DNA of 64,000 nucleotides, from positions 40,251 to 104,250 of the forward strand of contig CALVBT010000003.1 of assembly GCA_944325885.1 (NCBI GenBank). The letters run 5' to 3'. This DNA comes from Candidatus Gastranaerophilales bacterium (lineage in GTDB: Bacteria; Cyanobacteriota; Vampirovibrionia; Gastranaerophilales; Gastranaerophilaceae). This document shows positions 1-30,774 of the stretch, in pieces. Position 1 is the first letter of the stretch. Each line of letters opens with the position of its first letter. The notes beneath the pieces were generated by a model. The model saw only the letters and a program-made list of their open reading frames with translations. It was not told the origin of the DNA and ran no database searches. The position numbers and the translations under genes were made by a program.

Positions 1-994
1 TATAACTTTTTAAATCAGAAATAATTCTATCGTAAAGAAAATTTAAATCAGCATCTGAATTAGCAAATACTTCAAGTGACAAATCATTCAATTCTTGTTG
101 AATAATATTATATTGATCAACAGTTAAAATATTGGCTTTAATTAGAGTAATTACTCCATTTAAAACCGGCAGGTAACTATTTATAAGATTTTTCGCTTTT
201 GTTAGCAGTGTATTCTGAGCATCAAATCCAATTTTGGAGAAAAGAGCAGGTTCTAAAAGTATAAAACTATCTACTATTTTTAGGTTCATTGTAATTTGAT
301 GCCAATCTGCATTAGGTAGCTTAGCAATATCTAATTTCTTTAATAAAACATACAAAATATTTATTCCAAGGTTAACTTCTTGTATTTTTGTATTTTTAGT
401 CAAATATTGATCTAACTTTTTTAAGTATTCATTTATAAACAATATTAAATTATCTGTGTCAATTCTGTTAAGTAACAAATTTGTATGCCTTTCTATCGAA
501 GCAGGAAAATTTGCGACGTATAACATATTATCGGTAAGTTTAGAAATCTCCTGTTTTATATTGTTTTTTGTAAAATACAGTGTTTTTGCCAGTATTATAT
601 CTATTACATCAACAAAGGCACTATCAACATTTTCTAATTTAGGACTTGCGTTATATGGATGAGCATATATGCATCTATTTTCATAAATTTGTTTTAATTT
701 ATTTTCTTCAATTGCATCAATAAATCCATATTCTTTTGCTTTTGTTAATATGATTTTATCAGTTGCTTGTTTTCCATTAGCAGTATTAGTAATTTCATCA
801 TAAATTTTTTTTGCAGCCGGATCCGTTCGGCTTAATTGTTTAAATCTTTCAACAATAGATTCTATGCAAGCAAGCCAAATTAATATATATGCAGCTCTAT
901 ATTGTCCACAGTTAATAACTTTAACTGCATCAGTTATTAAAACTTTATCAGTGTCTTCCGGGATTTTTTTTATATATTCATTATAATCAGTCAT
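1..994 (-). CDS. Prophage accessory protein with DUF4145-like N-terminal helical domain (partial; C-terminus lies beyond window start)
   Basis: Absent from the ORF track because it is truncated. My own minus-strand translation is open from the ATG at about 992-994 down to base 1 (MTDYNEYIKKIPEDTDKVLITDAVKVINCGQYRAAYILIWLACIESIVERF...LKQIYENRCIYAHPYNASPKLENV...). The ATG overlaps the stop of the upstream 82-aa ORF (ATGACTGA). The DUF4145 resemblance is from a remembered family pattern, not a search. Confidence 0.55.
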   Translation of the reverse strand, partial: MTDYNEYIKKIPEDTDKVLITDAVKVINCGQYRAAYILIWLACIESIVERFKQLSRTDPAAKKIYDEITNTANGKQATDKIILTKAKEYGFIDAIEENKLKQIYENRCIYAHPYNASPKLENVDSAFVDVIDIILAKTLYFTKNNIKQEISKLTDNMLYVANFPASIERHTNLLLNRIDTDNLILFINEYLKKLDQYLTKNTKIQEVNLGINILYVLLKKLDIAKLPNADWHQITMNLKIVDSFILLEPALFSKIGFDAQNTLLTKAKNLINSYLPVLNGVITLIKANILTVDQYNIIQQELNDLSLEVFANSDADLNFLYDRIISDLKSY

Positions 995-1235
995 TTATTA
1001 TTGAATCCTCTAGCTCAAACTTTTTGTACAGCAGCATTCGTAGCTTTTCATAGGCTCTAAAACGTTGAATCATGTCTTCCGTAATAGTTGAATCATAATC
1101 ACAATCTGGTATTGTGTAAGCATAAGACTTATTTTTTTTCTTTATATCCTGAAACAGCCTGATATGGTCGTCATAATAACGCACATTCAAATCTGCTATT
1201 TCTATCTCCTGTTTTATCCGTTTTAAAGAGTCCAC
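987..1235 (-). CDS. Hypothetical small prophage protein (82 aa)
   Basis: ORF track. Same strand and tight spacing with the phage genes. Its stop overlaps the start of the downstream partial CDS, suggesting translational coupling. No recognisable motif. Confidence 0.5.
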   Translation of the reverse strand: MDSLKRIKQEIEIADLNVRYYDDHIRLFQDIKKKNKSYAYTIPDCDYDSTITEDMIQRFRAYEKLRMLLYKKFELEDSIIND

Positions 1236-1279
1236 ATTCTTATCCCCATTGACATCATGGTATATAAAAAAAGAAAAAG

Positions 1280-1299
1280 TTCAATATTTACATATTGAA
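1280..1299 (-). promoter_or_regulatory. Perfect dyad TTCAATAT-N4-ATATTGAA between mor and the next operon; candidate activator (Mor-type) site / middle-promoter element
   Basis: Read directly: ttcaatatttacatattgaa. On the minus strand it is followed about 20 nt later by a -10-like TATATACC and then the 82-aa ORF start at 1235. Phage Mu Mor acts at a promoter with an upstream dyad (established knowledge); the assignment here is inference. Confidence 0.3.
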
Positions 1300-1329
1300 C
1301 TGAAGAATATATGCCTATTAGGAAGAAGT

Positions 1330-1623
1330 TTAAGATGAACTTTTCTTTCTATGCTTATTTATTATGTTGTATATGTGCCGAGGGGTTAGTTCGCATTCTA
1401 TTGCCAGTTTATTTAGTGAGTACTTTGAATTTTGATAGTTTGAAATAATATATCGCTCTTTTAGTTTATTTAAGGCATTCTTTGGAATGGAAACAATCAA
1501 CCCGGGTGTGCATATTATCAATGCCAGAGCAGGTTTAATTCCTGCTGTTTCGGCTATGAATTTCAGGTCGTCATTCGGCATATCATCAGGTGTTACACCG
1601 TTTAACCACTGTTTAAATTCCAT
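1330..1623 (-). CDS. mor: Mor-family transcriptional activator (Mu middle operon regulator-like)
   Basis: 97 aa. The pattern DLKFIAETAGIKPALALI...IVSIPKNALNKLKERYIISNYQNSKYSLNKLAIECELTPRHIYNII matches the Mor layout (x-IYIPK-x-RN-x-I-x-F-x-G-x-LA-x-Y-x-LS-x-IY-x-I). GAGGA RBS upstream. Lies in a Mu-like early region. Confidence 0.75.
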   Translation of the reverse strand: MEFKQWLNGVTPDDMPNDDLKFIAETAGIKPALALIICTPGLIVSIPKNALNKLKERYIISNYQNSKYSLNKLAIECELTPRHIYNIINKHRKKSSS

Positions 1624-1663
1624 TTAATCCTCATGTCAAATCTCCGATTATGAAGTATAAGCA

Positions 1664-1685
1664 GTGCAGGGAATTTTCCCTGCAC
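1664..1685 (-). terminator. GC-rich 9-bp hairpin (GTGCAGGGA/TCCCTGCAC) between the early genes and mor; possible attenuator/terminator
   Basis: Read directly, just downstream of the 91-aa ORF stop (1691) on the minus strand. The following tract is only moderately T-rich. Confidence 0.35.
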
Positions 1686-1690
1686 TATTG

Positions 1691-1966
1691 TTATGCGTTA
1701 ATAAGCGTATCAATGGTATTGTTTTTAAAAGCTTGAGTTAAATCAGCTTCAAGCTCTTTTAAAACAAATATTTTAGATCTTAAAATTTCAAAATTTCTTG
1801 CACTATTTGCAACTTTATTTAAAGAAGCCATCACATCTTTTATGTTTTCCGGTCTTTCTTCTTGTAATAAACCTTCAGCAAAGATTTTAGAGTTTTCTGC
1901 CAACTTAGCTTCTAATGTTTTTTGCTTTTCTTTGATAATTGTTAAAACTTGCTCTTGTGTATCCAT
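1691..1966 (-). CDS. Hypothetical prophage early protein, coiled-coil (91 aa)
   Basis: ORF track. Co-directional and tightly packed with the GemA-like and Mor genes. No motif recognised. Confidence 0.5.
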   Translation of the reverse strand: MDTQEQVLTIIKEKQKTLEAKLAENSKIFAEGLLQEERPENIKDVMASLNKVANSARNFEILRSKIFVLKELEADLTQAFKNNTIDTLINA

Positions 1967-1989
1967 TGTTATTCTCCTATTTATGTGTG

Positions 1990-2448
1990 CTAAACAGATG
2001 TGGCCGCATCGTCTAAATTTTTCTTCATACGGGTAATTGCTTGGATCGCTTTTATTCCTTTTTCTTTTGTTAAAAACGCCGTATCTTCTATATTGAATTT
2101 CTTTCTTAAAAAAGTTCTTAATGATTGTTTTGCAAACTTGTCTGTATCTTCATAACTAAGCTCACGCCAAAGCCCTTCTATCATTCTTCTTTGCGCTCCA
2201 GTTGCCATATATGATGCACGTGATGAATCATCATATTTTAATGGCTGTTTTATCCATAGATTTGCTTTTATTGCATTATCTTCCAATATTTCGAGAATAA
2301 TTTTCGCTTCAGTGTATGTAAGATTTTTAGATGTGGTAACATCAAAACTACGCAGCATATTGCGGTATGTGTTATCATCAATACCAAGAAGATTTTTTAA
2401 CGTATGAATCTTTCTTATTTGAAATTTAGTGATACTGTATGCTCTCAA
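1990..2448 (-). CDS. gemA: GemA/gp16-like regulatory protein (DUF1018 family)
   Basis: 152 aa. IRKIHTLKNLLGIDDNTYRNMLRSFDVTTSKNLTYTEAKIILEIL matches the remembered DUF1018 pattern (I-x-x-IH-x-LG-x-DD-x-YR-x-L-x-S-x-x-L-x-EA). Non-ATG (TTG) start in the track. Sits downstream of the MuB-like gene, as in Mu. Confidence 0.7.
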   Translation of the reverse strand: MRAYSITKFQIRKIHTLKNLLGIDDNTYRNMLRSFDVTTSKNLTYTEAKIILEILEDNAIKANLWIKQPLKYDDSSRASYMATGAQRRMIEGLWRELSYEDTDKFAKQSLRTFLRKKFNIEDTAFLTKEKGIKAIQAITRMKKNLDDAATSV

Positions 2449-2566
2449 TACCGAGTTCCTCCAGTTGAATATGTCTGCCGTGATAAATACCTATTTGAAC
2501 TCCGATAATTAAAATTGTTAGGAGTATCAGTAATGTATAAAAAATTTTTGAAGTATTAAATTCCAT
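2426..2566 (-). CDS. Small membrane protein (46 aa), prophage early region
   Basis: Own translation: MEFNTSKIFYTLLILLTILIIGVQIGIYHGRHIQLEELGIESIQYH, one TM helix. AGGAG lies 5 nt upstream of the ATG, immediately after the MuB-like stop. Too short for the ORF track. Confidence 0.45.
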   Translation of the reverse strand: MEFNTSKIFYTLLILLTILIIGVQIGIYHGRHIQLEELGIESIQYH

Positions 2567-2574
2567 CTATTCTC

Positions 2575-3450
2575 CTACACCATAAGTAATAGCGATGATT
2601 TTTCTATTACAAGCTCATCAATTCTGTCTTTTTTGTTGATTTTGGCAATAAAAAGAGAATGCGAAATTAAATTGGAAAGCGTTCTCATATTACCATCCGA
2701 ATATTTTAAATATGTGGAAGCAAGTGAAAGGTCTATATGCATTGCTTCAAGAACTTTCATTACATCTTGTATTGATAATTTATTGAGTGATTTATAATAT
2801 TTAACTCTTGAATACAGTTGTTTATATTCAGTCATATGCAGATAAAGTTCAGAGGCACCAATGAGAAGAATACCGATTCCTGTTTTATCATGTATTCTGC
2901 GTGCCATTTCCAATGCACTGTATTTCAGTTTGTCAGCCTCATCTATGATTAAGAATCTGCCGGAATTATACAGTTTATTTAAAACTTCACATTTTAGTTT
3001 ATATGTTGTTCCTGTACCTGAGAGGTTTAATCTTTTGTGAATATCTAACAAGAGTGCTTTTGCAGAGTAACTTGAATCACTTTCTATAAGAATGCTGTCA
3101 AGATATTTGTCTGTGTATTTTTTTATTGCATAAGTTTTTCCAAGTCCCGGTTGTCCTGTGCAAACACCAATTTTTCCGCTAGTATGACAAACTCTGCTTA
3201 TTTCGTGAACATACTTTACTGTTGATGTTTCTATATATGGAATTTCTTCTTCAACAACACGTGCTTCTTCTCTATCAATAAAGTTGTTTACAACATCAAT
3301 AATACGATTGTCTTTTCCTGTATAATCGTGATTTAGCCAGCGGCTAATATCTGTTTTTGTTAATTCAGTAGCCTGAACAACATCTGCGTAAGAATAATTT
3401 TTCTTTTTTAGTAAGTTAATAAATTTTTCTTTTAAGTCCATTTTATGCAC
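2575..3450 (-). CDS. MuB-like AAA+ ATPase (DNA transposition protein B) with N-terminal HTH
   Basis: 291 aa. N-terminal HTH (DVVQATELTKTDISRWLN), Walker A GQPGLGKT, Walker B LIIDEADKL. Start overlaps the stop of the transposase gene. Confidence 0.8.
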   Translation of the reverse strand: MHKMDLKEKFINLLKKKNYSYADVVQATELTKTDISRWLNHDYTGKDNRIIDVVNNFIDREEARVVEEEIPYIETSTVKYVHEISRVCHTSGKIGVCTGQPGLGKTYAIKKYTDKYLDSILIESDSSYSAKALLLDIHKRLNLSGTGTTYKLKCEVLNKLYNSGRFLIIDEADKLKYSALEMARRIHDKTGIGILLIGASELYLHMTEYKQLYSRVKYYKSLNKLSIQDVMKVLEAMHIDLSLASTYLKYSDGNMRTLSNLISHSLFIAKINKKDRIDELVIEKSSLLLMV

Positions 3451-5401
3451 CCTTGCTTTCCTTCTCTAATACGCAATCTGTTTCAAATAAAAATAGACGT
3501 TCTTCTTGAGTTTTATTGCGTTGTTCAAATACTGAGAGGTCAAAATTATTCATCTCAGCCATTAATTTACTTTTTTGTATAGCTTTATCCATATTGGTAT
3601 TGGCTATTTTTGAAATTTTAGGATTTATTGCCGGTAAATCTTTTTGATATAAAGCTTTGTAGTTTGCACATTGTTCATTTAAGCTAATATCTTGAGTTCG
3701 TTTAATAAATTCTTTAGCTACCTTTAGATTTCTTTTTTTTGCAGACATAGCCTCTTTGAATTCCTGTTTGGAAACTATATCTGCATCCAATGCTGCAACC
3801 GCACTCATGGCAGAAACGTTACCTATAAATTCATCATTATCGGCACGGAACACCCACGCCTCTTTGTAATTTTGAATATCTCGACGAAGATAAACTTTGA
3901 GATCAGTACGGGCTGACATCCAGTCTGCCCAATATGTAATCCCAAGTTCATTGTCCCTGATACCGTTTCTGCCTATTCTAAAAATGCGGGATGTTCTCAT
4001 ACAGAATAGTTTGAGAGCATCTTTGGAAGTTATAATTTTTTCCGTGAATTCCTGATTAAACAGTTCATCTGGACAAAGACCTTTAAGGTTTTTACCTTGA
4101 GACGGTTTTTTATTTAGAATATTAATTACAAAATCGTCAAATAGTTCCTTGAATTCATTAAAAGGCATAATTTTGCCTCTTTTAATTTCTTCTTTTAGTT
4201 TTTCAGGACGTTCAAGAATATTTCCGCCTCTGTAGCCTACTGCGTGCTTTGACAAAAGTTCTTTTATCTTTAAAAAATCCCTTTCAATGGGCTTTGTCTG
4301 ACCATTGTAAGGTTGAGCAAAATGAACTTTTATATTTAATTCTGCAAGCATTGAAGTTGTTTTCACTTCGTCTGTTTCAATAGTTATTCTTTTTCGTCCT
4401 CCGGCAAAATCTCTACACCGATAATCTTTACCATTGTCAATAATTACATCACTAGGAAGTCCGAATGCTCTTGCAGCATAATAAAAGGTCTGAAAAATAT
4501 GGTCTGAATTTGGGTGTCCTGTCTGTAGCAACCAACCAAGCCATTTAGAAGATTTAAAATCTCTCCACGCTGTTACCCAAGGAAAGACTGCATCTCCTGT
4601 TTCATTAAGACAAGCTATATCTATTTGAGCGTGGTCAGAAACCCATACTTTGCCGCAGGTAATATTAGAATAATCACGTTCTATATAATTGCTATATTTA
4701 CGATTCCAAGCCGACTGACCATAACGTGCAAGATAAATCGCCTGCTTAGGAATTTCTTTTTCCAATCTTCTTCTGAAAGAATGATGGCTTGGAAACATTT
4801 TAATATCAAAATTTTCACGAAGTGCATATCCTTTAGTCTGTTCCCAACAAGAGTACAGAGATGGTGCGCCTTCTTTTAGATATAAATTTTTGAAATATTC
4901 ATATAGTTTATCGTCAACTATTGTTTCTCCTGCTCTTTTTCCATATTGAGCAAGTAATCCGTTTAACCCAAATTCTTTATATCTTTGACGCATTTTTCTG
5001 ATAGAAGAGTAAGATGTTTGAAAGCACGGATTGCAACAATTCCATTTTGCAACAAAATCAATCAATGATTTTCCCGTCAAATTTTCACACGCATTCAGAA
5101 TGTTAATATATTTATCTGCCTGAACTTTAGCCCAAACAGGTGCATCTGAATAAGAATCTTGGTTGTATCTGAAATCCTTAAATTTTTTCAGATACTCTTT
5201 TTGGATATTATCTGTTAACGATGAAACATTTATATAATACAAGTGCTTTGTGCCGGATTGTTCTATTTTAAAGCAGAATTCTCCTTTTGAACATTTCTGT
5301 CTTAATGTTTTAGGTTTAATGTTCAAGATGCAGCAGGCTTCTTCTTCGTTAAGCCATTGAGGAATATTTTCGTTTATTTCGTTAATCGGCTTCATTAACA
5401 C
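3443..5401 (-). CDS. MuA-like DDE transposase (rve core plus Mu-type N-terminal DNA-binding domain)
   Basis: 652 aa. Candidate DDE residues sit in VWVSDHAQIDI, VIIDNGKDYR and PYNGQTKPIERDF. Winged-helix-like N-terminus. Followed by the AAA+ partner gene. Confidence 0.85.
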   Translation of the reverse strand: MLMKPINEINENIPQWLNEEEACCILNIKPKTLRQKCSKGEFCFKIEQSGTKHLYYINVSSLTDNIQKEYLKKFKDFRYNQDSYSDAPVWAKVQADKYINILNACENLTGKSLIDFVAKWNCCNPCFQTSYSSIRKMRQRYKEFGLNGLLAQYGKRAGETIVDDKLYEYFKNLYLKEGAPSLYSCWEQTKGYALRENFDIKMFPSHHSFRRRLEKEIPKQAIYLARYGQSAWNRKYSNYIERDYSNITCGKVWVSDHAQIDIACLNETGDAVFPWVTAWRDFKSSKWLGWLLQTGHPNSDHIFQTFYYAARAFGLPSDVIIDNGKDYRCRDFAGGRKRITIETDEVKTTSMLAELNIKVHFAQPYNGQTKPIERDFLKIKELLSKHAVGYRGGNILERPEKLKEEIKRGKIMPFNEFKELFDDFVINILNKKPSQGKNLKGLCPDELFNQEFTEKIITSKDALKLFCMRTSRIFRIGRNGIRDNELGITYWADWMSARTDLKVYLRRDIQNYKEAWVFRADNDEFIGNVSAMSAVAALDADIVSKQEFKEAMSAKKRNLKVAKEFIKRTQDISLNEQCANYKALYQKDLPAINPKISKIANTNMDKAIQKSKLMAEMNNFDLSVFEQRNKTQEERLFLFETDCVLEKESKGA

Positions 5402-5603
5402 AATAGTCCTTGATTTTTATATCGAATACTTTTTCAATAAGATATAATTCAAGCTCAATGCTTTTTCTTTCGCCGGTTAAATACATACTGACTGTGCTAT
5501 TTGCAACGTGAATTTCTTTGGCAACCTCTGTAACCTTCAAGTCCAAAATCATAAAAATGAATTTAGCAGTCAAAATTTTAGGTATATAACTAATATTTCG
5601 CAT
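5382..5603 (-). CDS. Ner/Cro-like small HTH regulator
   Basis: The track ORF is 5382..5699. I prefer the internal ATG at 5603, which has AGAGG upstream and gives 73 aa. HTH VTEVAKEIHVANSTVSMYLTGER. It is the first gene of the early operon and overlaps the transposase start. An even shorter start at 5552 is possible. Confidence 0.55.
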   Translation of the reverse strand: MRNISYIPKILTAKFIFMILDLKVTEVAKEIHVANSTVSMYLTGERKSIELELYLIEKVFDIKIKDYCVNEAD

Positions 5604-5751
5604 AAAAAATTTGACCTCTGATATGTGTGATGCTGCCAACAAAAAAAAGGCAAAGCCCAATTGTCTATGTATTTTCCGTTTGTGGCTATTTTTTATCAAT
5701 TGTCTTTATATGAACAATTATATTTATGCGGAAATAAAAATAAATACCTGA

Positions 5752-5800
5752 AAAACAAAGCCTGTGAAGGATTTCACAGATAAAATAAGGGCTTTGTTTT
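5752..5800 (-). terminator. Long hairpin (AAAACAAAGCC ... GGCTTTGTTTT) with flanking T/A runs; bidirectional terminator-like insulator between the two transposition modules
   Basis: 11-bp complementary arms read directly. The loop contains the TGTGA-N6-TCACA palindrome. A T-run follows on the plus strand (ttttttgatttttttt) and TTTTT on the minus strand. Confidence 0.45.
5763..5778. promoter_or_regulatory. Palindromic operator-like site TGTGAAGGATTTCACA upstream of the Ner-like/early operon
   Basis: Perfect TGTGA-N6-TCACA dyad read directly, 64-160 bp upstream of the candidate early-gene starts. A related site is repeated at 5862-5875 and 9341-9360. Confidence 0.45.
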
Positions 5801-5861
5801 TTTGATTTTTTTTAGTTTTAAATAATAACTGGATTTAAAACTTTCACAAAAAATACAAAAT

Positions 5862-5875
5862 TGTGAAATATTTCA
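5862..5875. promoter_or_regulatory. Second copy of the operator-like sequence (TGTGAAATATTTCA)
   Basis: The 15-nt string ttgtgaaatatttca (5861-5875) is identical to 9342-9356. Confidence 0.4.
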
Positions 5876-5885
5876 TTACAATTTC

Positions 5886-6560
5886 TTAACAATTCATTAA
5901 ATTACAAAGCTCATTAACCAATTGTGTATAATTTTTTCCATTTCGCCATATAACTTCAGCAATATGAAAATGTGTATAATATCGCATTGTATTATGAGCT
6001 AATTTTCTTTTTATTTTTGAATATAATTTACAAAATTCTCTAGCTTCTGAAGCTGAAAACAATCTACCATCAAGAGAACAAAGCGGTCTATCAGCAATAT
6101 AGTACTTTGACTTAAAACTATAAAAATAAAAACTTTTATTAAAAAAGGTTCTTTCTCTCGGAATTTGAGAGCTTTTTGAGATTAATAACTCACACTCTTG
6201 TAATTGTTTTTGGTAGATTACTTCTCTAATACTTTTAAATATTATTGATACCCTGTTTTCACATAAATTAATTACTTTGGAAACTTTTTCAACAGGTATT
6301 TCAGCACAAAAACACCTTATTAAAAATTCGGTATTTTCGGCAGGATAATTATCTATTACATACATTAATTTATTATTTTTAATAACAGAATCCTTTTCTA
6401 TATAAATATAGTAACCATCTTTTAGAATTAAATTACCATTTTGAATTAAATCTTGTAAAATCGGCTCTAGTTCTTCTATTGAAAATTGAGAGATTAAAGC
6501 AATTCTATCCAAACTGAACATATTTAGGTGTTTGCAAAGTCGCAATATTTTTTCTTTCAT
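5886..6560 (-). CDS. IS1595/ISXO2-like transposase-derived protein lacking the DDE core; N-terminal winged-helix-like extension
   Basis: 224 aa. Two blocks resemble the HTH and C-terminal blocks of short ISXO2-like transposases as I remember them (LIELF-A-TA-AA-L-GVN-T...LR-I and IE-FW-AKR-L-KF-G...LKECE-RFN): LIRCFCAEIPVEKVSKVINLCENRVSIIFKSIREVIY and EFCKLYSKIKRKLAHNTMRYYTHFHIAEVIWRNGKN. The central DESYFGG/DDE region is absent. Overlaps the upstream AAA+ gene by 17-56 nt. Confidence 0.55.
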   Translation of the reverse strand: MKEKILRLCKHLNMFSLDRIALISQFSIEELEPILQDLIQNGNLILKDGYYIYIEKDSVIKNNKLMYVIDNYPAENTEFLIRCFCAEIPVEKVSKVINLCENRVSIIFKSIREVIYQKQLQECELLISKSSQIPRERTFFNKSFYFYSFKSKYYIADRPLCSLDGRLFSASEAREFCKLYSKIKRKLAHNTMRYYTHFHIAEVIWRNGKNYTQLVNELCNLMNC

Positions 6561-7242
6561 ATAATAAATTCCTTATAACTTCTGCATCTACGTAATCTAT
6601 AGAATTTGTTTTTGATAACTTTTCAATCTTGTCGATAATTTTGGCAATTTCTCTAAATTTATTAGTTTTATTTGCAATAAAATCTATAGCATCATCGCTA
6701 AACTCTATATCAGACAGGGATGTAACTATTTCATTAATATCCTGTTTATTAAATGCTTGAAATTTTAAAATAGAGTATAAACGCCCATAAATATGACTTA
6801 ATTTTGAAAGTTTTCTGTCACAATCTGCCATCCCGACAAGAACAATAGGAATTCCGGTTTTGTCATGAATATCTCTTAAGGTTTCTATTGATTTGTTTGC
6901 AATAAGATAATCAACCTCATCGACAATAATTATTTTGGGGTTTACTTTTAACTGTTTTTCAATAGCATTAAAGTTGTCTTCCAGTCTTCCGTAACGAGAT
7001 GTATCTAACTGTGAAAGAATATCGTGCATTAGCCATCTGCTGGTCATTTTATTGTTTGCACGAACATAGATAGCAATATCATAATTTTGCATTACCCACC
7101 ACAGAAGTGTTTCCGTCTTCCCTAGTCCTTGCTCACCATAAACAAGAGCCATTTTCGGAACATTAACAGGTAGATTTTTTAATGTATCCATTAAAGTTGT
7201 AAACATTTTGACGTTTTTGGTTTTTAAAAATGTATTTTTCAT
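6505..7242 (-). CDS. TniB/TnsC/MuB-like AAA+ ATPase (transposition helper), no N-terminal HTH
   Basis: 245 aa. Walker A GEQGLGKT, Walker B IIIVDEVDYL. The block IHDKTGIPIVLVG is paralogous to IHDKTGIGILLIG of the 291-aa MuB-like protein. Start overlaps the transposase stop. Confidence 0.8.
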   Translation of the reverse strand: MKNTFLKTKNVKMFTTLMDTLKNLPVNVPKMALVYGEQGLGKTETLLWWVMQNYDIAIYVRANNKMTSRWLMHDILSQLDTSRYGRLEDNFNAIEKQLKVNPKIIIVDEVDYLIANKSIETLRDIHDKTGIPIVLVGMADCDRKLSKLSHIYGRLYSILKFQAFNKQDINEIVTSLSDIEFSDDAIDFIANKTNKFREIAKIIDKIEKLSKTNSIDYVDAEVIRNLLYERKNIATLQTPKYVQFG

Positions 7243-9224
7243 TCATATAGCTCCTTGTACTCATCTGTCATTTTGTAATTCTGTACCCACTCCCTGTCTT
7301 CAGCAGATGTGCATCCGTTTTCTTTGAACCATTCATAGCGTTCGTAGTTTGAACTAAACAATGGTCTGTTCATCTGAGCTTCACGGAGAGTCGGCTTCTT
7401 TTCCCGTTTCGTTTTTGTTTCTTCTATAATTTCAGGAATTACATCAATAATGTCATCTTCAACCTTTTTATCAATAAGCAGTAGATCCTGATCAGGTAAA
7501 ATTTCTTTGACCTTCTTGAGAATTCTGTTTTTACGCTGCTTCTGTTTTTGGATTTTCTGTCTGAAATCTTCCATATCAGCAACATTTCCGAGATAATTTG
7601 CCATAGGGTTTGTTTTAGTTACCCTGTTGGCGGTACAAATGTATTGACCGTCTAATGAATAAACAAGTACTTTTGAAATATCAAAAAGGCTGTAGCGTAT
7701 GTAAACTCTTTCTCTGTAGCCGACAAGCATTTCATTGAAATAATGTGCATCAAGAAACGATATCCCGTTACGCTGTATTGTTCGTATTTCACTTTTCATC
7801 ATTAAATAATCAAGCGTGTGTTGATTTATATCTTCTCTTGCAACAGTATTTAAACACTGTTTAATCGTCATTTCACGTGCATTGGGACAGGGCTTTGAGT
7901 TGTGATAATTTAACCAGTAATCAATTAACTGTATTGCCTGTTGCACAGTTGGAATTTTGTTTTTTACAGATTTTTCATATAACTTCTTGTGAAACTTCTC
8001 ACCTCTGTTTAATCTCGGAGGTTTTTCACTAATAGATGTACCGATGTATGAATTCATTAACTTTTCAAACTCGGCAAATTCTTTAAAGAACCTCTCTATT
8101 ACTTTGGCTTTTGCATTATACGGTTTTGCAAATACCGGCTTTATTCCCAAGTTTTCATATACACCGTTAAACCCTTCTTCATTAAAATTACAATGCTGAA
8201 AATACTTAGCCTTAAACGCTCTGCCATTGTCTTGATAAACAATTTTAGGAATTTTTCCGAGATTTAAAATGGAGTTTCTTAATGCACTTGCAATACACTG
8301 GGTATTTTCTGTCATCATAATTTCATAACCAACAAGAGCTGTTGACTTCCAATCTAAAAAGCCAACGAGTGTTGCTCTCGTGGGCTTGCCTGTGAACGGA
8401 TTAATGACTTCAAAATTAAGAACGTGTCCGTCAGCAACTAAGACATCTCCGACTTCTATCTTTGATAAATCACGTTCAATGTATGGTTCAACTTTATCAT
8501 TCAAGGCTTTTTCGCCTTCACGCATTAATGTCCAGACATCGAATTTAGTCTCTTTGAAATGGTTTGCATATCTTCTGAAAGTTGACTCGGACGGAATATC
8601 CTCACAACCTTCGTTCTCTAAAATATATCTGGTTAAAGAAATAGCTTTGCTTATCGTAATTTTATTCGGGTGAAGCAGAAACTTCAACAGAACTTGTTTC
8701 ATATGCTCATCAAGAGAACAATCGTACTCATCATATTTTGAATATCTGTATTGAGGCATAAGAGCATCAATTCCCATCTCATCGTATGCTTTAATCCATC
8801 TGTCAATTGTTCCTCTTGAAACATTGCCGATAAATGCATAAATCTTTTTGAGGTATAAACCGCTGTTATACAATTCTAAAAAGTTTTGCATAGCTTCTTT
8901 ACGGGTTTTAAATCTTGTTCTGAAATTCTGAAACCCCTTAATTAAATCAACACGTGCTAAAGCAGTCAGCTGAGCTTTTTCTTTAACAAACGATGCCGTT
9001 TTGTTATTCAACGGAACTAAAGGATGGAATTTATCTTCATCCATTAATTTATGCTGTAATTCAGGCTCAAGAGATGTGATAAGGATTTCGTAGCTCGTTC
9101 CGCCTTTAACCTTGACCTCTCTGTAGATATACTTGCTGAGGTTATTTCTTATGGAACGTGTGCTTTTCAGCCCTTTTAGTTTCGCTATTTTCTGTATGGG
9201 TATGTATTTATCTTGCATACTCAC
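7239..9224 (-). CDS. MuA/TnsB-like DDE transposase (second copy, paralogous to 3443..5401)
   Basis: 661 aa. Candidate DDE residues sit in VLVADGHVLNF, IVYQDNGRAFKA and PYNAKAKVIERFF. N-terminal HTH-like region (IQKIAKLKGLKSTRSIRNNL). Confidence 0.85.
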   Translation of the reverse strand: MSMQDKYIPIQKIAKLKGLKSTRSIRNNLSKYIYREVKVKGGTSYEILITSLEPELQHKLMDEDKFHPLVPLNNKTASFVKEKAQLTALARVDLIKGFQNFRTRFKTRKEAMQNFLELYNSGLYLKKIYAFIGNVSRGTIDRWIKAYDEMGIDALMPQYRYSKYDEYDCSLDEHMKQVLLKFLLHPNKITISKAISLTRYILENEGCEDIPSESTFRRYANHFKETKFDVWTLMREGEKALNDKVEPYIERDLSKIEVGDVLVADGHVLNFEVINPFTGKPTRATLVGFLDWKSTALVGYEIMMTENTQCIASALRNSILNLGKIPKIVYQDNGRAFKAKYFQHCNFNEEGFNGVYENLGIKPVFAKPYNAKAKVIERFFKEFAEFEKLMNSYIGTSISEKPPRLNRGEKFHKKLYEKSVKNKIPTVQQAIQLIDYWLNYHNSKPCPNAREMTIKQCLNTVAREDINQHTLDYLMMKSEIRTIQRNGISFLDAHYFNEMLVGYRERVYIRYSLFDISKVLVYSLDGQYICTANRVTKTNPMANYLGNVADMEDFRQKIQKQKQRKNRILKKVKEILPDQDLLLIDKKVEDDIIDVIPEIIEETKTKREKKPTLREAQMNRPLFSSNYERYEWFKENGCTSAEDREWVQNYKMTDEYKELYE

Positions 9225-9235
9225 AGATTAGCTCT

Positions 9236-9534
9236 AAAGTCGGAACTTTGGAGCTTTTTTACCGACTTATGTGTCTGAAGCGAAACAATTTATTTCGCAT
9301 AAAATTAAATACCGAGTTTCTAACAAAAAAGTACCGACTTCTTGTGAAATATTTCACAAGATTTTTGTTAATTTTCAAAAGTCCAACAAAAAAATTGCAG
9401 ATACTTTGAGCAAAATCGCCACTTGTGGCTAAAAAGCAGGATATGACTTGTTTAAAGGTAAAAACTTTTGAGGACAATTGGTGTCCATTTCATGGACATT
9501 TCAGTACTTTTGCTCAAACTAAAATACCGACTAA
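9236..9534. repeat. Array of five TACCGA(C/G)T-type motifs (GTCGGTA on the gene strand); candidate transposase-binding or regulatory sites in the element end
   Basis: Read directly: 9236-9248 aaagtcggaactt (inverted), 9257-9268 ttttaccgactt, 9307-9319 aaataccgagttt, 9327-9340 aaaagtaccgactt, 9521-9534 aaaataccgactaa. Confidence 0.45.
9341..9360. promoter_or_regulatory. Perfect 20-bp palindrome CTTGTGAAATATTTCACAAG (TGTGA-N6-TCACA core) upstream of the second transposase gene
   Basis: Read directly, about 120 bp upstream of the ATG at 9224. Shares 15 nt with 5861-5875 and the dyad architecture with 5763-5778. Confidence 0.5.
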
Positions 9535-9646
9535 AATGGACAGTAAGAGTCCTAATTTTAGAGCATTTGAGGGGCTTTGCTCGAAGTATTCGCAATTTCA
9601 AAAGTACTTGAAACAATACACTTAGATACAGAAAAACGCTATATAA

Positions 9647-9679
9647 ACAAAAAAGCTTGAAACTCAATTGTTTCAAGGC
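9647..9679 (-). terminator. Rho-independent terminator of tRNA-Ala
   Basis: On the minus strand: CTTGAAAC-AATTGA-GTTTCAAG (8-bp stem) followed by CTTTTTTG, starting about 10 nt after the tRNA CCA end. Confidence 0.7.
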
Positions 9680-9687
9680 TTATATAA

Positions 9688-9763
9688 TGGTGGAGGATAG
9701 GAGATTCGAACTCCTGACCCCCTGCGTGCAAAGCAGGTGCTCTACCAGCTGAGCTAATCCCCC
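9688..9763 (-). tRNA. tRNA-Ala: tRNA-Ala (anticodon UGC), CCA encoded
   Basis: The reverse complement reads GGGGGATTAGCTCAGCTGGTAGAGCACCTGCTTTGCACGCAGGGGGTCAGGAGTTCGAATCTCCTATCCTCCACCA (76 nt). It has a 7-bp acceptor stem with G3:U70, a canonical D arm, anticodon loop TTTGCAC, T loop TTCGAAT and a 3' CCA. Confidence 0.95.
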
Positions 9764-9950
9764 ACGAGATTTTTTGCTATATTCGCACCTGCTTTCAGGT
9801 GCTTAATTTCAAAACGTAAAGCTATCACTTTACTGGGCGTGAGCTAACTACCCACGAGATTTTTGCTATATTCGCACCTGCTTTCAGGTGCTTAATTTCA
9901 AAATGTAAAGCTATCGCTTTACCGGGCTTGAGTTGAACTCCACACGAGAG
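9751..9950. repeat. Tandem duplication (2.2 copies, 90/89-bp units) of the tRNA-Ala 5' end plus leader/promoter region
   Basis: Units 9751-9840 and 9841-9929, plus a partial copy at 9930-9950. Each begins gag(c/t)t(a/g)a...cc(c)acgaga and contains the hairpin gcacctg-cttt-caggtgc. The first 13 nt of unit 1 are the real tRNA 5' end. Units 1 and 2 differ by a few substitutions and one T indel. Confidence 0.85.
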
Positions 9951-10012
9951 ATTCAGTAATTATTATAATACATGCTAATTTTTTTTTGTAAAGACATTAT
10001 TTAAAAATTTAT

Positions 10013-11047
10013 TTATTGCCATTCTTTTTCAATAGAAAGTATTCTTTTAGCGAATGGTAACTTAAATTTTAATATAGTTTCTTTTTTTATTATATGTTTT
10101 TGTTGTGTATCCAAATACTCTCTTAAAAATGGCGTTTTAACAAGATAATTAAACCATATCTCAGATTTTAGACAACCCGGACAATTCCATGGTTTTGCCA
10201 TGCCTGCATAATGCAATTGAATAGGATTGTTTAAAGCAAAATCCACTTCTTCTTTTGTATGACCTAAAGCATTATTATAATCCTCTTTTGTTTTAAACAT
10301 ATCATAGCTATATGTGCAAACAAGAGCATTTGCGGGCATAATTTTGATTTTAGGATAACAAATCAAACTAATAACATCCTGTTCGGGCTGCAATAGCCTA
10401 TATGAATTTTTATAAGCAAAATCAACACATTTTTGATAAATGTTATCTTCTCTCATTTTCTTGAGATTAAAAATATAATATCCTGCACCACAGATTAATT
10501 TACTTCTCTCTTCTTCTGTATATAAATCCAGATAATTTTGTTTCTTCTTATTTCTAATTTTTTTTAATATTTTAAAGAATAAAGAAATTTTGTTTTTAGT
10601 TTCACAAGTATTACTTTTTATTAATATAGATTTTGCAGCATAAACATAATCATCCCCATTTACATCAAAATCTTCATAAATTGGAGCTACATCATTTAAA
10701 TAAACAACATCCACATCTGCAATCATTATTTTATCTAAATCAGGAAACAGCTCAGGAACACAAAACTTATAAAACATTTCTGCAGAAAAATGACCTTTTG
10801 TCTTAAGAGAATCAAATAAATCACAAAATTTCTTTTTCATATCAATAAATTTTATTGATGCGTTAGGAAAGTTTTTAACTATTTGTTCAAGAGTTGACTG
10901 ATGATTAACAGACAAATCATTATGCAATATAAAAAAGTTATAAAAATAATCTCTACTAGAATTTTCCAATAAAGAAAGTATTGCTACCCCGCCCAGAATT
11001 GCATAATTATCGTTAAAACAATTCATTATATTTATTGTTTTATCCAT
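10013..11047 (-). CDS. Glycosyltransferase family 8 (LPS glycosyltransferase-like)
   Basis: 344 aa. N-terminal NDNYAILGGVAILSLLENS and the DxD motif in IMIADVDVVYLNDV are typical of GT8. Visibly more AT-rich than its neighbours. Confidence 0.7.
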   Translation of the reverse strand: MDKTINIMNCFNDNYAILGGVAILSLLENSSRDYFYNFFILHNDLSVNHQSTLEQIVKNFPNASIKFIDMKKKFCDLFDSLKTKGHFSAEMFYKFCVPELFPDLDKIMIADVDVVYLNDVAPIYEDFDVNGDDYVYAAKSILIKSNTCETKNKISLFFKILKKIRNKKKQNYLDLYTEEERSKLICGAGYYIFNLKKMREDNIYQKCVDFAYKNSYRLLQPEQDVISLICYPKIKIMPANALVCTYSYDMFKTKEDYNNALGHTKEEVDFALNNPIQLHYAGMAKPWNCPGCLKSEIWFNYLVKTPFLREYLDTQQKHIIKKETILKFKLPFAKRILSIEKEWQ

Positions 11048-11724
11048 TAAATTTTTCCTTGTCTGACAAGACTTTCTATCCCTACAACATCTATGCCTTG
11101 GTAGTTTGATTTTACTTTTGGTATCAGATATTCATCATTAAATTTCATCAAATAGCCCAAATATGCACCCAAAATAGCCTCTAGCTGAGAAACAGGGAGC
11201 ATGTTAGACGGCAATTCCTTAAAACCGAAGCGGAACTTTAATGCACTTTGCAAAGCCTTGCAATCAACCGGCGAGCGGTCTTTGTATATACCGGACAGAC
11301 CGAGGGAGTATTTAATTTCGTGTATATCATAACGAAAAATATCCACACCTTGATTTTTCAACTCAATAAAGAAATCACATCCACGATGGGCATATCTTTC
11401 TATCCAGTCGCTTTCTTTGTTTATCAGCCTGTTTGTTTGCACCAGCTGATATTCTCTTGCTGTTAGTTTCCATTTTGCATTGAGCATTGTAGGATTTTCA
11501 GGCAAAGCTATATTAATTATGGCGTTTTGTTTTCCCACGAGCCTTTTAAAAAAGAATCGTACATCGTCCATCGAAAAAAGCTTGTCCAGCGTAATTATAT
11601 TCAGATTGTTATCTAAAATTGCAACACCTGTTTCATTTGTCGAACATGAGCCTAAAGAAATTCCGACAAAGAAAAGTTTGTTTTCATAGTTTATATTTTT
11701 TAGTGAGCTATCCTTAATCATCAA
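11047..11724 (-). CDS. Hypothetical protein, possibly DUF429-like RNase H-fold
   Basis: 225 aa. N-terminal FFVGISLGSCSTNETGVAILD and C-terminal LEAILGAYLGY resemble the DUF429 layout (weak, from memory). Stop overlaps the GT8 start. Confidence 0.4.
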   Translation of the reverse strand: MMIKDSSLKNINYENKLFFVGISLGSCSTNETGVAILDNNLNIITLDKLFSMDDVRFFFKRLVGKQNAIINIALPENPTMLNAKWKLTAREYQLVQTNRLINKESDWIERYAHRGCDFFIELKNQGVDIFRYDIHEIKYSLGLSGIYKDRSPVDCKALQSALKFRFGFKELPSNMLPVSQLEAILGAYLGYLMKFNDEYLIPKVKSNYQGIDVVGIESLVRQGKI

Positions 11725-20870: not shown

Positions 20871-20924
20871 GTATATATATAAAAAATTTTTATATATAAA
20901 AATTGCTATTTTTATATATAAAAG
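20871..20924. promoter_or_regulatory. AT-only palindromic repeats (ATTTTTATATATAAAA x2, 22-bp period, plus a third TATATATAAAA) upstream of the Q-rich protein gene
   Basis: Read directly: 20886-20901 and 20908-20923 are 15/16 identical and self-complementary. Located 35-85 bp upstream of the ATG at 20838. Confidence 0.35.
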
Positions 20925-21059
20925 TATATACTTAAGACCAAAAACCAATAATAATAAGAGTTTTTAACTTTACAAAACTTAACATTATGTGCAAAAATAT
21001 ATAAAATTATGTACAACAAGAAAAAATGAACAAATAAAAAAAGATTGTTTTCTTTATAT

Positions 21060-21310
21060 CTTCATTTCTTTTCTTTTGTATTGCGCAGGCAAAAGAAAAG
21101 AAACGAAGCAAAGAAAAGAAAACCGGCGCTTTATCAAAAGAAACAGTAAAGTGTTTTATCGGAGATTTTTCAGCGACAGGCTGCTGTAAAAATCTCCTCA
21201 AAACACAACTGTTTCTAACAAAATCACAACGGCAGAGCCTATAACACTTCGTGTGCAGCTTCGCTGCAAAATAATTATTTTTATACATAAAAGGCAATAT
21301 TGTATTTATT
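21060..21310. repeat. Structured intergenic repeat element, copy A (polypyrimidine/polypurine hairpin plus conserved downstream motifs)
   Basis: Arms 21065-21078 TTTCTTTTCTTTTG and 21090-21103 CAAAAGAAAAGAAA form a perfect 14-bp stem. A third purine arm lies at 21109-21122. ACAACGGCAGAGCC is at 21226-21239 and GCAATAT at about 21293. Homologous to 25700-25920. Confidence 0.6.
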
Positions 21311-21433
21311 TTTGAGTGCTTTTAAAGGATGGAGGACGGAATCAGCACGAAAAAATGAATACATTATTGTCATGACATACTTAGCTTTTGTCGGATTGTA
21401 AATCCGACCTACTAATCTAACCCCGGCTACGCA

Positions 21434-21612
21434 CTACGCAAGGGGCAAAGCCCCGTCTGATTTCGTTTCTTTAAATACGGCAGGTTCGTGAAAACTGAAC
21501 GTTTCCACTCACGACTGTGTTTCACACACTGCCGATTTCGCTGTCTTTAAATCAGACGCTCCGTCTCCCTGAACGTGAGACTACGCATGGGGCAAAGCCC
21601 CGTCTGATTTCG
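21434..21612. repeat. 32-nt direct repeat pair (CTACGCA[A/T]GGGGCAAAGCCCCGTCTGATTTCG) bracketing a hairpin-rich 115-bp segment; the second copy encodes the last 10 codons and stop of the ABC transporter
   Basis: Copies at 21434-21465 and 21581-21612 are 31/32 identical. Each contains a GGGGC-AAA-GCCCC stem-loop. Between them, ccgtctga...cggcag pairs with ctgccg...tcagacg. Confidence 0.75.
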
Positions 21613-23371: not shown

Positions 23372-23590
23372 TTTTTCTCCAAATAAATCCTCTATCAATA
23401 TAATTTTATAATAACCGTAAAATAATTTTGAGAACACGTAAAAAATCTTTACAAAGCCGCAAAAGCCAGTAATAGCAAATTACAATAGCCCATAACCAAA
23501 ACAAAAAACACAAATTTTATTAAAGAAACCTCTGACTCAGCCGATATCCATAACATATATTAATTTACTATTCAGGGAAAGGCACATCTT

Positions 23591-25552: not shown

Positions 25553-25588
25553 TAAATTAAATACAAAAGCAAAAGCAGCTCCGGACAA

Positions 25589-25608
25589 AACAGCTCGGGG
25601 CTGTTTTT
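25589..25608 (+). terminator. Weak rho-independent terminator after the EF-hand protein gene
   Basis: AACAGC-TCGGG-GCTGTT followed by TTTAT, 37 nt after the stop. Confidence 0.35.
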
Positions 25609-25699
25609 ATATATTTTGTAGTTTTGAAGCACCCAGTTGCGGCTTTGTCCATGATTTAGCTGTGTTTGGAATCTCTTGCCGATTTTATATTTATATTTG

Positions 25700-25920
25700 T
25701 TCATTTTCTTTCTTTGTTGCGATGCAAAGAAAGAAAATGAACCAAAAGAAAGAAACTCGCATTGTTGTTACAGACACTATGTTTTTATCTGCAAAATTTT
25801 CTAACCGCTTTCGCTTAACGAAAATTTTGGGCGAAAAAACTAAGTGTCTGTAATCAAGGTTACAACGGCATAGCCGTATTTGTTTTGTATTTTGTAATGA
25901 CAAGCAATATATTTGTTACA
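25700..25920. repeat. Structured intergenic repeat element, copy B
   Basis: Arms 25704-25716 TTTTCTTTCTTTG and 25725-25737 CAAAGAAAGAAAA form a perfect 13-bp stem. A third purine arm lies at 25743-25755. ACAACGGCATAGCC is at 25862-25875 and GCAATAT at about 25903. Same order, orientation and spacing as copy A. Confidence 0.6.
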
Positions 25921-25955
25921 ATTTTTTCAAAGTTTTTACGGCTAACAAATTCGAA

Positions 25956-27038: not shown

Positions 27039-27514
27039 CAGGTCTTTATCCCTTTTATATGAAGTACTTTCAGTTTTTATTTTAGCATGAATAAAGACAC
27101 TTTTTTGTTTTAATACATTTGATGGAGTTGATAAGTTTTTGATAGAACTTTTTTGCTCTTTAAGAGGCATAAGATATTTACTTCTTCGTTCCGACTTCGT
27201 CGTCCCTCCTTCGTAGTCACTCCGAAGCAAACATCTTACACCTCTTTATTGATGCAGTGGAATTTGATTTTGAAACCTTTTACGAAGCTTTGTACAACAA
27301 CTTATCAAAACATCTGCAGGGCGAGTGTGTCTGAGGGCTGGGTAATTATAACAAACACTTTTTATTTTTGTTAGAAAATCTATTTTGACAGCCCGAGTTG
27401 CGAGCCTTGAGTTTTGATTAGTTGATGTAAAAGCGTAGTATCAGGTTGAAAAATTAAATTTTGCTGCAAGAACAAAGCAGAAGGTAGACTTTTAATAATT
27501 ATCTGCATCAATTT

Positions 27515-29296: not shown

Positions 29297-29299
29297 AAT

Positions 29300-30764: not shown

Positions 30765-30774
30765 ATATATTTCC

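Follow-up and report, generated by a model that had tools for sequence, protein, structure and literature searches.

Comparative analysis of a conserved Mu/Tn7-type transposition cassette beside tRNA genes of Gastranaerophilales, whose third protein resembles an inactive IS1595-type transposase

In this study, we analyzed a 64,000-nucleotide stretch of DNA from a Candidatus Gastranaerophilales bacterium (assembly GCA_944325885.1, contig CALVBT010000003.1; hereafter the window), focusing on three adjoining genes, A1, B1 and C1, which lie beside its tRNA-Ala gene and encode a DDE transposase, an AAA+ ATPase and a third, unannotated protein. Comparison with related loci shows that this trio is, as far as sequences can tell, a conserved and recently mobile transposition cassette, and that the elements carrying it insert in fixed orientation beyond the 3' ends of tRNA genes. 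The trio is a new variant form of Mu/Tn7-type targeted transposition, for which we consider a role of C1 as the target selector to be somewhat probable. By profile alignment, C1 itself derives from an IS1595-type transposase, is catalytically dead and has gained an N-terminal winged helix. Window positions 5886-9620 are, by homology, the tRNA-proximal arm of a ~37-kb composite Mu-like prophage of Gastranaerophilales (Melainabacteria), and the same comparisons show a mobile unit that, from the tip at 9620 onward, includes both the trio and a phage early region.

The features named in an earlier sequence-only reading of the window, namely the tRNA-Ala, a Mu-like tip at 9620 and genes for proteins of 661, 245 and 224 amino acids (aa), were all recovered where it had placed them. 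The tRNA-Ala(TGC) (9688-9763, minus strand; ARAGORN, and 70 bits with Rfam) is the sole tRNA of the window, and an Rfam scan gave no further match in 10013-64000. Its 3' end faces the element tip across a 67-nucleotide (nt) spacer (9621-9687, minus strand), in which a hairpin and a T-run form the tRNA terminator. The element left end (9225-9620, minus strand) carries the tip 5'-TGTATTG at 9614-9620, and from there A1, B1 and C1 read away from the tRNA 3' end: A1 (7239-9224, minus strand) encodes the 661-aa DDE transposase of the MuA/TnsB clade, B1 (6505-7242, minus strand) the 245-aa AAA+ ATPase of the MuB/TniB/TnsC kind, and C1 (5886-6560, minus strand) the 224-aa protein, overlapping the 3' end of B1 by 56 nt. 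These were the only three open reading frames (ORFs) in 5886-9620, and none of them is a TnsA endonuclease or a resolvase.

The left end, 5'-TGTATTGTTTCAAG, starts at 9620, 67 nt past the tRNA-Ala. In contigs from other samples that carry the element at 91-100% identity (L132, L133, L135, L136, L137 and L002), homology sets in exactly at TGTATTG, and the spacer outside the tip is wholly different in L136, L132, L135 and L002; in L134, the tip itself was not found. Because similarity begins at TGTATTG while the outside DNA differs, the tip at 9620 is, judged from these alignments, a true mobile-element boundary. Motif enrichment in the left end identified the octamer AGTCGGTA, repeated three times in a single orientation between the tip and A1 (9260-9267, 9332-9339 and 9525-9532) and present once elsewhere in the 64 kb; ~0.5 copies are expected by chance, and none of 100 shuffles reached four. 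The 64-kb window holds no inverted copy of this octamer, nor one of the TGTATTG tip, which had been anticipated as the mark of an opposite end. The element's other end, where a duplicate of CTTAG would be expected, is located beyond the window. In three related elements (L002, L001 and L135), an extra ~1.15 kb lies between the left end and A1 (L002:485-1632) and encodes a 257-aa hydrophobic protein and a 60-aa protein; it is missing from the window copy (at 9288-9302).

Near-identical elements were found only at tRNA flanks, at no fewer than five different sites. The tip lies at +68 from the tRNA-Ala in the window as well as in L133 and L137, both 100% identical to window 1-11623, and at +34 in L136, which occupies the same tRNA-Ala locus at 99.3% nucleotide identity with a different spacer. 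An element with 100% identical A1, B1 and C1 proteins adjoins a tRNA-His with its tip at +169 (L132), another is beside a tRNA-Val with its tip at +36 (L135; A1 94% identical), and further copies flank another tRNA-Ala (L134; A1 94.5% identical) and a different tRNA 3' end with a different spacer (L002). In a species-level scan with one genome per species, C1 relatives were identified at 75 loci, nearly all of them in Candidatus Gastranaerophilales or Melainabacteria assemblies, and a MuB-like and then a MuA-like gene precede C1 wherever the sequence reaches; conservation of the trio, a point on which the earlier proposal depended, thus extends over ~75 species-level genomes. We distinguished clade I, which is closest to the window (A1 ~55% identical), from clade II (A1 ~49% identical). 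Among the clade I loci with at least 1.3 kb of upstream sequence, 12 of 18 have a same-strand tRNA ending at most 1200 nt before A1, whereas a same-strand tRNA end within 1.2 kb is expected at ~1.3% of random positions. L018 is an additional, more distant clade I case, four further contigs begin inside the 3' part of a tRNA, and recognizable TG tips in this clade lie ~40-200 nt beyond the tRNA. In clade II, an opposite-strand tRNA is present at most 6 kb downstream of C1 in 13 of 20 loci, and the tRNA end is 15-130 nt away from a conserved tip, TGGGTTTTAATGGGACATTTGAAAA, which is sometimes accompanied by tandem older copies. Each clade keeps a single orientation with respect to the tRNA, and at least 12 tRNA kinds are used (Ala, Arg, Asn, Asp, Gln, His, Leu, Lys, Met, Phe, Ser and Val). 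In contrast, among ~27 IMG/VR Mu-like phages that possess only a second type of transposase/ATPase pair (A2/B2, described below), one had a tRNA just upstream; these phages are more distant, with A2 at most 56% identical. Since phages with the A2-type pair only rarely adjoin a tRNA, the association goes, across the loci compared, with the trio, and it is oriented and not tied to one tRNA. The expectation of recurrent tRNA adjacency, as opposed to random sites, was therefore borne out in both clades.

Several clade II loci (L049, L051, L068, L071 and L048) contain same-orientation tips in tandem, spaced by units of 2-3 kb, beside tRNA-Asn, and tip remnants occur in tRNA spacers too, including that of L085. 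These arrays and remnants point to repeated insertion and decay at the same tRNA flank.

The first two proteins of the trio belong to known families by sequence. A1 contains the Mu-transpos_C (Pfam, 1e-16), rve and HTH_Tnp_Mu_2/Mu I-gamma domains and matches PHROG 310 (transposase) over its full length at 1e-108; type V-K TnsB chains were its only sequence matches in the PDB, and its DDE motifs align with those of A2. B1 was assigned to Pfam AAA_22 (3e-20) and TniB (4e-8) and to PHROG 296, a Mu B-type family, with weak matches to VchTnsC and MuB chains. An N-terminal helix-turn-helix (HTH) is absent from B1 and present in B2. In pairwise comparison, A2 is 26% identical to A1, and B2 is 26% identical to B1.

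The third protein was far less accessible to routine annotation. Single-sequence scans of C1 against Pfam, NCBIfam and PHROG gave no significant match, including none to IS1595 or TniQ, against which a hidden Markov model search had been suggested, and a word-indexed search retrieved identical copies only. An exhaustive HMMER search, however, identified a C1 family of 111 cluster representatives, ~45 of them full length (~225 aa), with the conserved consensus motifs IIKCFCA..., FR..IY..Q, R.FF...YFY.Y and AE.IWR. The AlphaFold model of C1, built on the family alignment, reached a mean pLDDT of 93 and consists of a winged helix (~1-55), a helical HTH (~74-129), a three-stranded sheet (135-156) and a C-terminal part of three helices (170-221). 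Because of this family and the confident model, the C1 ORF is a real gene. A Foldseek search of the model against the PDB matched the N-terminal winged helix only, to generic winged helices, so that model and fold search agree with the winged-helix-like extension described from the sequence alone. A fold search in the BFVD viral models retrieved one unannotated member of the C1 family, A0A8S5TLG3, and tblastn of C1 against GenBank phages gave no match.

The relationship of C1 to IS1595 transposases emerged from profile-profile comparison. The IS1595 alignment comprised ten plasmid genes annotated as IS1595-family transposases; the query used to search for IS1595 copies was 92% identical to a Neisseria copy. 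With hhalign, the whole C1 family matched this alignment at 88% probability and an E-value of 3e-6 over 156 collinear columns, whereas the best of 30 column-shuffled controls gave an E-value of 0.09 and the reversed control 0.63. The HTH block alone matched at 4e-8, and the C-terminal helices alone at 1.5e-4, around the helix of the catalytic Glu; the winged helix alone and the sheet alone gave no match to the IS1595 alignment. The resemblance of the HTH and C-terminal blocks to the two ends of ISXO2-like transposases was thereby supported, as was the loss of the catalytic core between them: the alignment skips ~60 central columns, including the second Asp, no conserved residues of C1 correspond to the invariant D66, D128 and E163 of the IS1595 alignment, and 43 full-length C1 relatives gave no significant match to DDE_Tnp_IS1595, TniQ or any other Pfam or NCBIfam family. 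With the core skipped and the Asp, Asp and Glu not conserved, C1 is predicted to be catalytically dead.

Several lines of evidence connected C1 with the ATPase rather than with the transposase. C1 begins before B1 has ended in 67 of 68 loci (median overlap 41 nt), and the correlation of B1 and C1 identities, 0.73, is the highest of any pair involving C1. Additionally, L135 and the window are 94% identical in A1, 92% in A2 and 98% in B2, but only 51% in B1 and 28% in C1. The swapped stretch (L135:4383-5736 versus window 5895-7255) is bounded by the junction of A1 with B1 on one side and by the final C1 codons on the other. From 5894 leftward, L135 is again near-identical to the window, so that 5894-5895 marks a mosaic recombination breakpoint within these codons, which is also the module boundary separating the B1-C1 cassette from the phage early region. 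Because L135 replaces both genes while A1, A2 and B2 stay 92-98% identical, B1 and C1 are, by this comparison, exchanged as one cassette. The joint exchange agrees with the overlap and the correlated divergence and is expected of interacting partners. Five Logan contigs end at window 5865. We considered this break as the left end of a separate Mu-like phage and rejected it: 5865 equals the last base shared with the alternative B1-C1 allele (5894) minus 29, where with k=31 a unitig entering from the trio side would stop, and the break is therefore a mosaic boundary with the same breakpoint as in L135.

The DNA between C1 and the next gene was informative on regulation. The early control region of the second module (5604-5885, minus strand) contains two palindromes, an imperfect one (5861-5881) and CTGTGAAATCCTTCACAG (5762-5779), followed by the gene of a Ner/Cro-like HTH_3 protein (5382-5603, minus strand; Pfam HTH_3), which was called as 73 aa from Met33 of a 105-aa ORF in the window and as 73 aa in related contigs too. 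Across 19 elements, the palindrome type of the C1-Ner spacer covaries with the recognition helix of Ner, and the spacer palindromes of L135 are unchanged despite its different C1 allele. The left end contains a further palindrome, TTGTGAAATATTTCACAA (9342-9359), whose half-site is also found in the Ner operator region. A 15-nt operator-like sequence has one copy ~135 nt upstream of A1 and a second in the Ner control region, immediately after the C1 stop; in the window, L090 and L093, operator-like sequences of 14-19 nt are found both upstream of A1 and within the C1-Ner spacer. This recurrence suggests that the A1 operon and the Ner operon may answer to one regulator. A divergent c-type repressor was found neither between 9620 and A1 nor between C1 and Ner. 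C1 was also considered as a repressor binding the palindromes before A1 and Ner; this candidate was rejected because the palindromes follow the Ner helix and do not change on the C1 swap. Among the palindromes of the window (5762-5779, 5861-5881 and 9342-9359) and of the L014-L095 spacers, the types include GGGGAA..TTCCCC, CTGTCC..GGACAG, GTGAAAT..TTCAC and others, each paired with a matching recognition helix of the 70-aa Ner-like protein, and these operator/helix pairs look like a set of immunity types.

The trio does not end at 5858, the limit assigned to the element in the sequence-only reading, but runs into a second Mu-like module. Directly to the left of C1 lie the Ner-like HTH gene, A2 (3443-5401, minus strand; 652-aa MuA-like protein by Pfam, PHROG 310 at 1e-83), B2 (2575-3450, minus strand; 291-aa MuB-like ATPase, Pfam AAA_22, PHROG 296 at 1.5e-62), GemA (1990-2448, minus strand; Pfam GemA, 6e-16), a 91-aa ORF between GemA and Mor (1691-1966, minus strand) and Mor (1330-1623, minus strand; Pfam Mor, 2e-4), and this middle region of a Mu-like phage (1330-2448) runs on beyond the left edge of the window. 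The order of trio, Ner, A2, B2, GemA and Mor was observed at more than 15 species-level loci and in several IMG/VR contigs, the A2 start follows the C1 stop at a distance of 544-591 nt across tandem loci, and the tandem is kept down to about 55-60% protein identity. In pairwise comparisons, the divergence of A1 correlates with that of A2 (Mantel r 0.67, a value reached by 0 of 1000 permutations), and A2 relatives at least 57% identical always have the trio where upstream sequence exists. L133 continues into lysis, tail-fiber and baseplate genes, and the window's own prophage was extended by 10 kb (tail module) from a late gene, with the far end not reached.

A composite covering both boundaries was obtained from IMGVR_UViG_3300028571_002227, rebuilt over 45.7 kb from tRNA to host genes. 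It starts with the 3' part of a tRNA-Leu, a TGTATTTT tip at 111 and the trio, followed by A2, B2, GemA, Mor, the late genes and a gpG-like gene; a conserved 180-aa tyrosine recombinase ends at 37637 and host polysaccharide genes begin at 37981, which places the right boundary between 37640 and 37980. The composite thus spans, on this reconstruction, about 37.7 kb, the size of Mu, and no repeat of the tRNA 3' segment was found at its far side. The late genes of the Mu-like composites lie in divergent blocks. A late-gene block of ~8 kb is inverted between this composite (24416-32302) and IMGVR_UViG_3300045988_179067 (20903-28974), and the 180-aa tyrosine recombinase at the far right adjoins three copies of the inverted repeat ACACATAATAAACCTTGTGTGG (L174:12138-13024); recombinase and repeats may belong either to an invertase system or to a phase-variation switch of the host next to the polysaccharide locus. 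L128:8414-11230 holds a tRNA-His and then an ORF that fuses A1-type residues 1-331 to A2-type residues 84-490, which looks like a deletion or recombination product of both modules. Another contig, IMGVR_UViG_3300028571_002339 (57.8 kb), has a 73-nt direct repeat at both ends (96% identical; L089:25-96, L104:8-80) containing a terminator and a tRNA-like T-arm segment, and comprises a trio of clade II-like type, a TIR-like gene and an inverted phage that has the A2-type pair only. In phages with this pair only, a divergently oriented gene, a LexA/CI-type repressor by eye, lies upstream of ner (L104 and L110).

The trio was also found in elements other than this prophage. L007 contains it without a phage, in the order tRNA-Ala, trio and ~7.5 kb of cargo (Vsr, the cytosine methylase Dcm and others), with inverted GTTAGTTTGAGAATTTT copies at both ends. 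The cargo of L008 comprises HamA and a helicase, and clade II elements carry type I restriction-modification and STAND proteins.

Taken together, these results could be explained by a mechanism in which C1, following the logic of Tn7 and Tn5053, would bind a feature that tRNA genes, or their 3' flanks, have in common and would recruit or position B1, its translationally coupled and co-exchanged partner; B1 would then activate A1 bound at the element ends, resulting in oriented insertion into a harmless site. A2 and B2, in their usual Mu early context of Ner, GemA and Mor, would serve replicative transposition during lytic growth, and the A1 and A2 operons might be wired to the same Ner-type operators. 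That C1 acts as a transposase-derived selector is, on the sequence comparisons presented here, a moderately favored interpretation. Its fuller form, in which a dead IS1595 transposase has become an isoacceptor-independent reader of tRNA genes and the phage divides its labor between targeted lysogeny by A1/B1/C1 and replication by A2/B2, is tentative and in our judgment rather doubtful. Several observations weigh against a selector role. The tRNA-to-tip distance varies (~34, 36, 40, 59, 68, 129 and 169 nt; about 15 to 200 nt over all loci), and the end nearer the tRNA is downstream of C1 in clade II, with a gene orientation opposite to that of clade I. C1 is the fastest-evolving of the five proteins (mean identity 44% versus 68-75%), which is unexpected for the reader of a universal tRNA feature. 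A search for the right end in the rebuilt IMGVR_UViG_3300028571_002227 did not find it and showed no convincing inverted left-end motifs and no 5-bp duplication at the right boundary, and L007 showed no clear target duplication. In addition, the binding of C1 to tRNA-gene DNA and its contact with B1 are inferred, and either transposase, A1 or A2, could act on a given end.

Some of these observations would also fit a C1 that binds the element ends or has an architectural or regulatory part; it might assist transpososome assembly, serve as a transposition inhibitor or immunity protein, or control transcription of the A1 operon, and the tRNA flank would then be chosen by A1/B1 or by something in the host, such as stable-RNA genes with high transcription or terminator hairpins. 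Since binding of transposon ends is what the ancestral IS1595 HTH does, it would be the simplest function for C1 to have retained; the tip usually lies just beyond the terminator hairpin at a variable distance from the tRNA, C1 evolves fast, and it has no similarity to TniQ or TnsD. However, the operators covary with Ner and are the same after the C1 swap, C1 is exchanged with the ATPase and not with the transposase or the ends, and distant Mu-like phages that have an A/B pair without C1 are not tRNA-associated. We therefore regard such a non-selector C1 as unlikely, while it is the strongest competitor of the selector interpretation. The tRNA adjacency could alternatively result from selection or hot-spot accretion, with near-random Mu-like insertion and survival only in harmless, AT-rich islands downstream of tRNAs. 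Tandem remnants of older ends beside the same tRNAs (L049, L071, L085, L051 and L068) and the variable spacing would be in keeping with this, but survival alone is improbable as an explanation, given the constant orientation to the tRNA within each clade, the occurrence of near-identical elements only at tRNA flanks and at five or more sites, the 12 of 18 loci against ~1.3% expected at random, and the A2-only phages without tRNA association.

Two further possibilities were weighed. The trio might be an unrelated transposon or a decaying Mu-like remnant that merely lies beside an ordinary Mu-like prophage; tandem MuA/MuB pairs could come from one transposable phage inserting beside another, and the window is without the gene pair for 257 aa and 60 aa of L002 and L135. 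Against such a remnant, the A1, B1 and C1 ORFs are all intact, the tandem recurs at constant spacing in more than 15 species with correlated divergence, it is found at different tRNAs and bounded by the trio tip, and the two operons have the 15-nt operator-like sequence in common; a chance neighborhood is thus very improbable, and the trio, although part of a Mu-like prophage, is not the truncated remainder that the earlier reading had named as a possible refutation. It is least likely of all that a tyrosine integrase performs the tRNA-linked integration and that the Mu-type genes serve only for replication. The 180-aa tyrosine recombinase conserved at the far right of related phages and an integrase fragment in one clade II locus could be taken in its favor. 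Yet the boundary, a TG tip, falls 15-200 nt beyond the tRNA and not within its 3' end, identical elements occur at tRNA-Ala and tRNA-His, and the far side of the rebuilt composite carries no tRNA 3' repeat, because of which integration by an integrase is unlikely; the small recombinase beside inverted repeats and the 8-kb inversion fit an invertase role.

If C1 is indeed a selector, it would constitute the third independent source of selectors for Mu/Tn7-type machines, after TniQ/TnsD and TnsF, and this source would be a DDE transposase from another insertion-sequence family. Mu-like phages, textbook examples of random insertion, could then acquire targeted lysogeny, and there would be protein-guided homing to a whole gene class in a phage family thought to be random. 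The module is compact, with three genes of ~3.4 kb and a 400-nt end and no guide RNA, and it apparently recognizes a feature common to many tRNA genes, which may be of interest for safe-harbor insertion. The cassette also explains the recurrent architecture of tRNA, trio and defense cargo or prophage in ~75 Gastranaerophilales genomes, in which the third gene is currently unannotated.

Outside the element, the tRNA-Ala region of the window contains two extra tandem copies of the tRNA-Ala upstream region and the first ~20 nt of the tRNA (9750-9932; 89-90 nt period, 95% identical). This 176-nt tandem-copy stretch is absent from L136, though the flank is the same at 99% identity. The remainder, 10013-64000, assessed by the Rfam scan and, as far as 16 kb, by its ORFs, is apparently ordinary host DNA, with glycosyltransferase family 8, rfaE-like kinase, O-antigen ligase-like and VKOR/DsbA-like genes.

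In full-text literature searches, we found no description of the trio composition, in line with the earlier assertion of novelty, nor of Mu-like elements in Gastranaerophilales. In layout and behavior, the closest known systems are TnsA-less Tn7-like elements, including Tn5053 and the CRISPR-associated transposons (CASTs) of type V-K. In common with these, the trio has an end and behind it a single operon for a MuA/TnsB-clade transposase, a small ATPase of the AAA+ class and a DNA-binding protein as the third product, has repeated motifs in its end, carries defense-gene cargo and inserts in a specific orientation just downstream of a conserved host gene, and V-K TnsB is the best solved-structure relative of A1 by sequence. 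tRNA genes are the homing sites of V-K, I-B2 and I-D elements (PMC10293859). In contrast, C1 is unrelated to TniQ/TnsD and there is no CRISPR module; the trio uses many tRNA kinds even with identical proteins, as opposed to one attachment site; its distance from the tRNA is variable, whereas TnsD or guide-RNA targeting in Tn7 and CASTs acts at a fixed distance; and A1 matches phage PHROG 310 end to end, with the cassette being part of a phage in the window. Of the Tn7-like layout proposed for the window, the operon order and the siting at a tRNA stand, while a 3.7-kb element bounded at 5858 does not.

The composite also resembles Mu-like phages, with which it shares the TGTATTG end, MuA- and MuB-like proteins, the Ner-like protein, GemA, Mor, a myovirus tail and baseplate and a length of ~37 kb; the left end of Mu likewise starts with 5'-TGTATTG. 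It differs from them in two divergent A/B pairs, the lack of a c-type repressor at the left end, tRNA adjacency in fixed orientation as against near-random insertion, and late genes in divergent blocks. The third relative is IS1595 (ISXO2-like; short transposases of the IS1016/ISAcra1 type), to which the C1 HTH aligns gap-free (for example, IIQCFCIDIPASK...FRKAIY in an Acinetobacter copy) and the C-terminal helices align around and after the catalytic E; C1 differs in having no DDE triad, an added winged helix and no flanking insertion-sequence ends, and in its constant position after a MuB-like gene. Finally, in Tn6022 the selector TnsF derives from a tyrosine recombinase and is catalytically inactive (Faure et al. 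2023, PMC10293859), acting together with TniQ to target comM (PMC10293859). C1 differs from TnsF in its origin from a DDE (IS1595) transposase, the absence of a TniQ partner, its association with tRNA flanks and a selector role that we infer; Tn6022 nevertheless provides the nearest precedent for a dead recombinase of another mobile element serving as a Tn7-type target selector.

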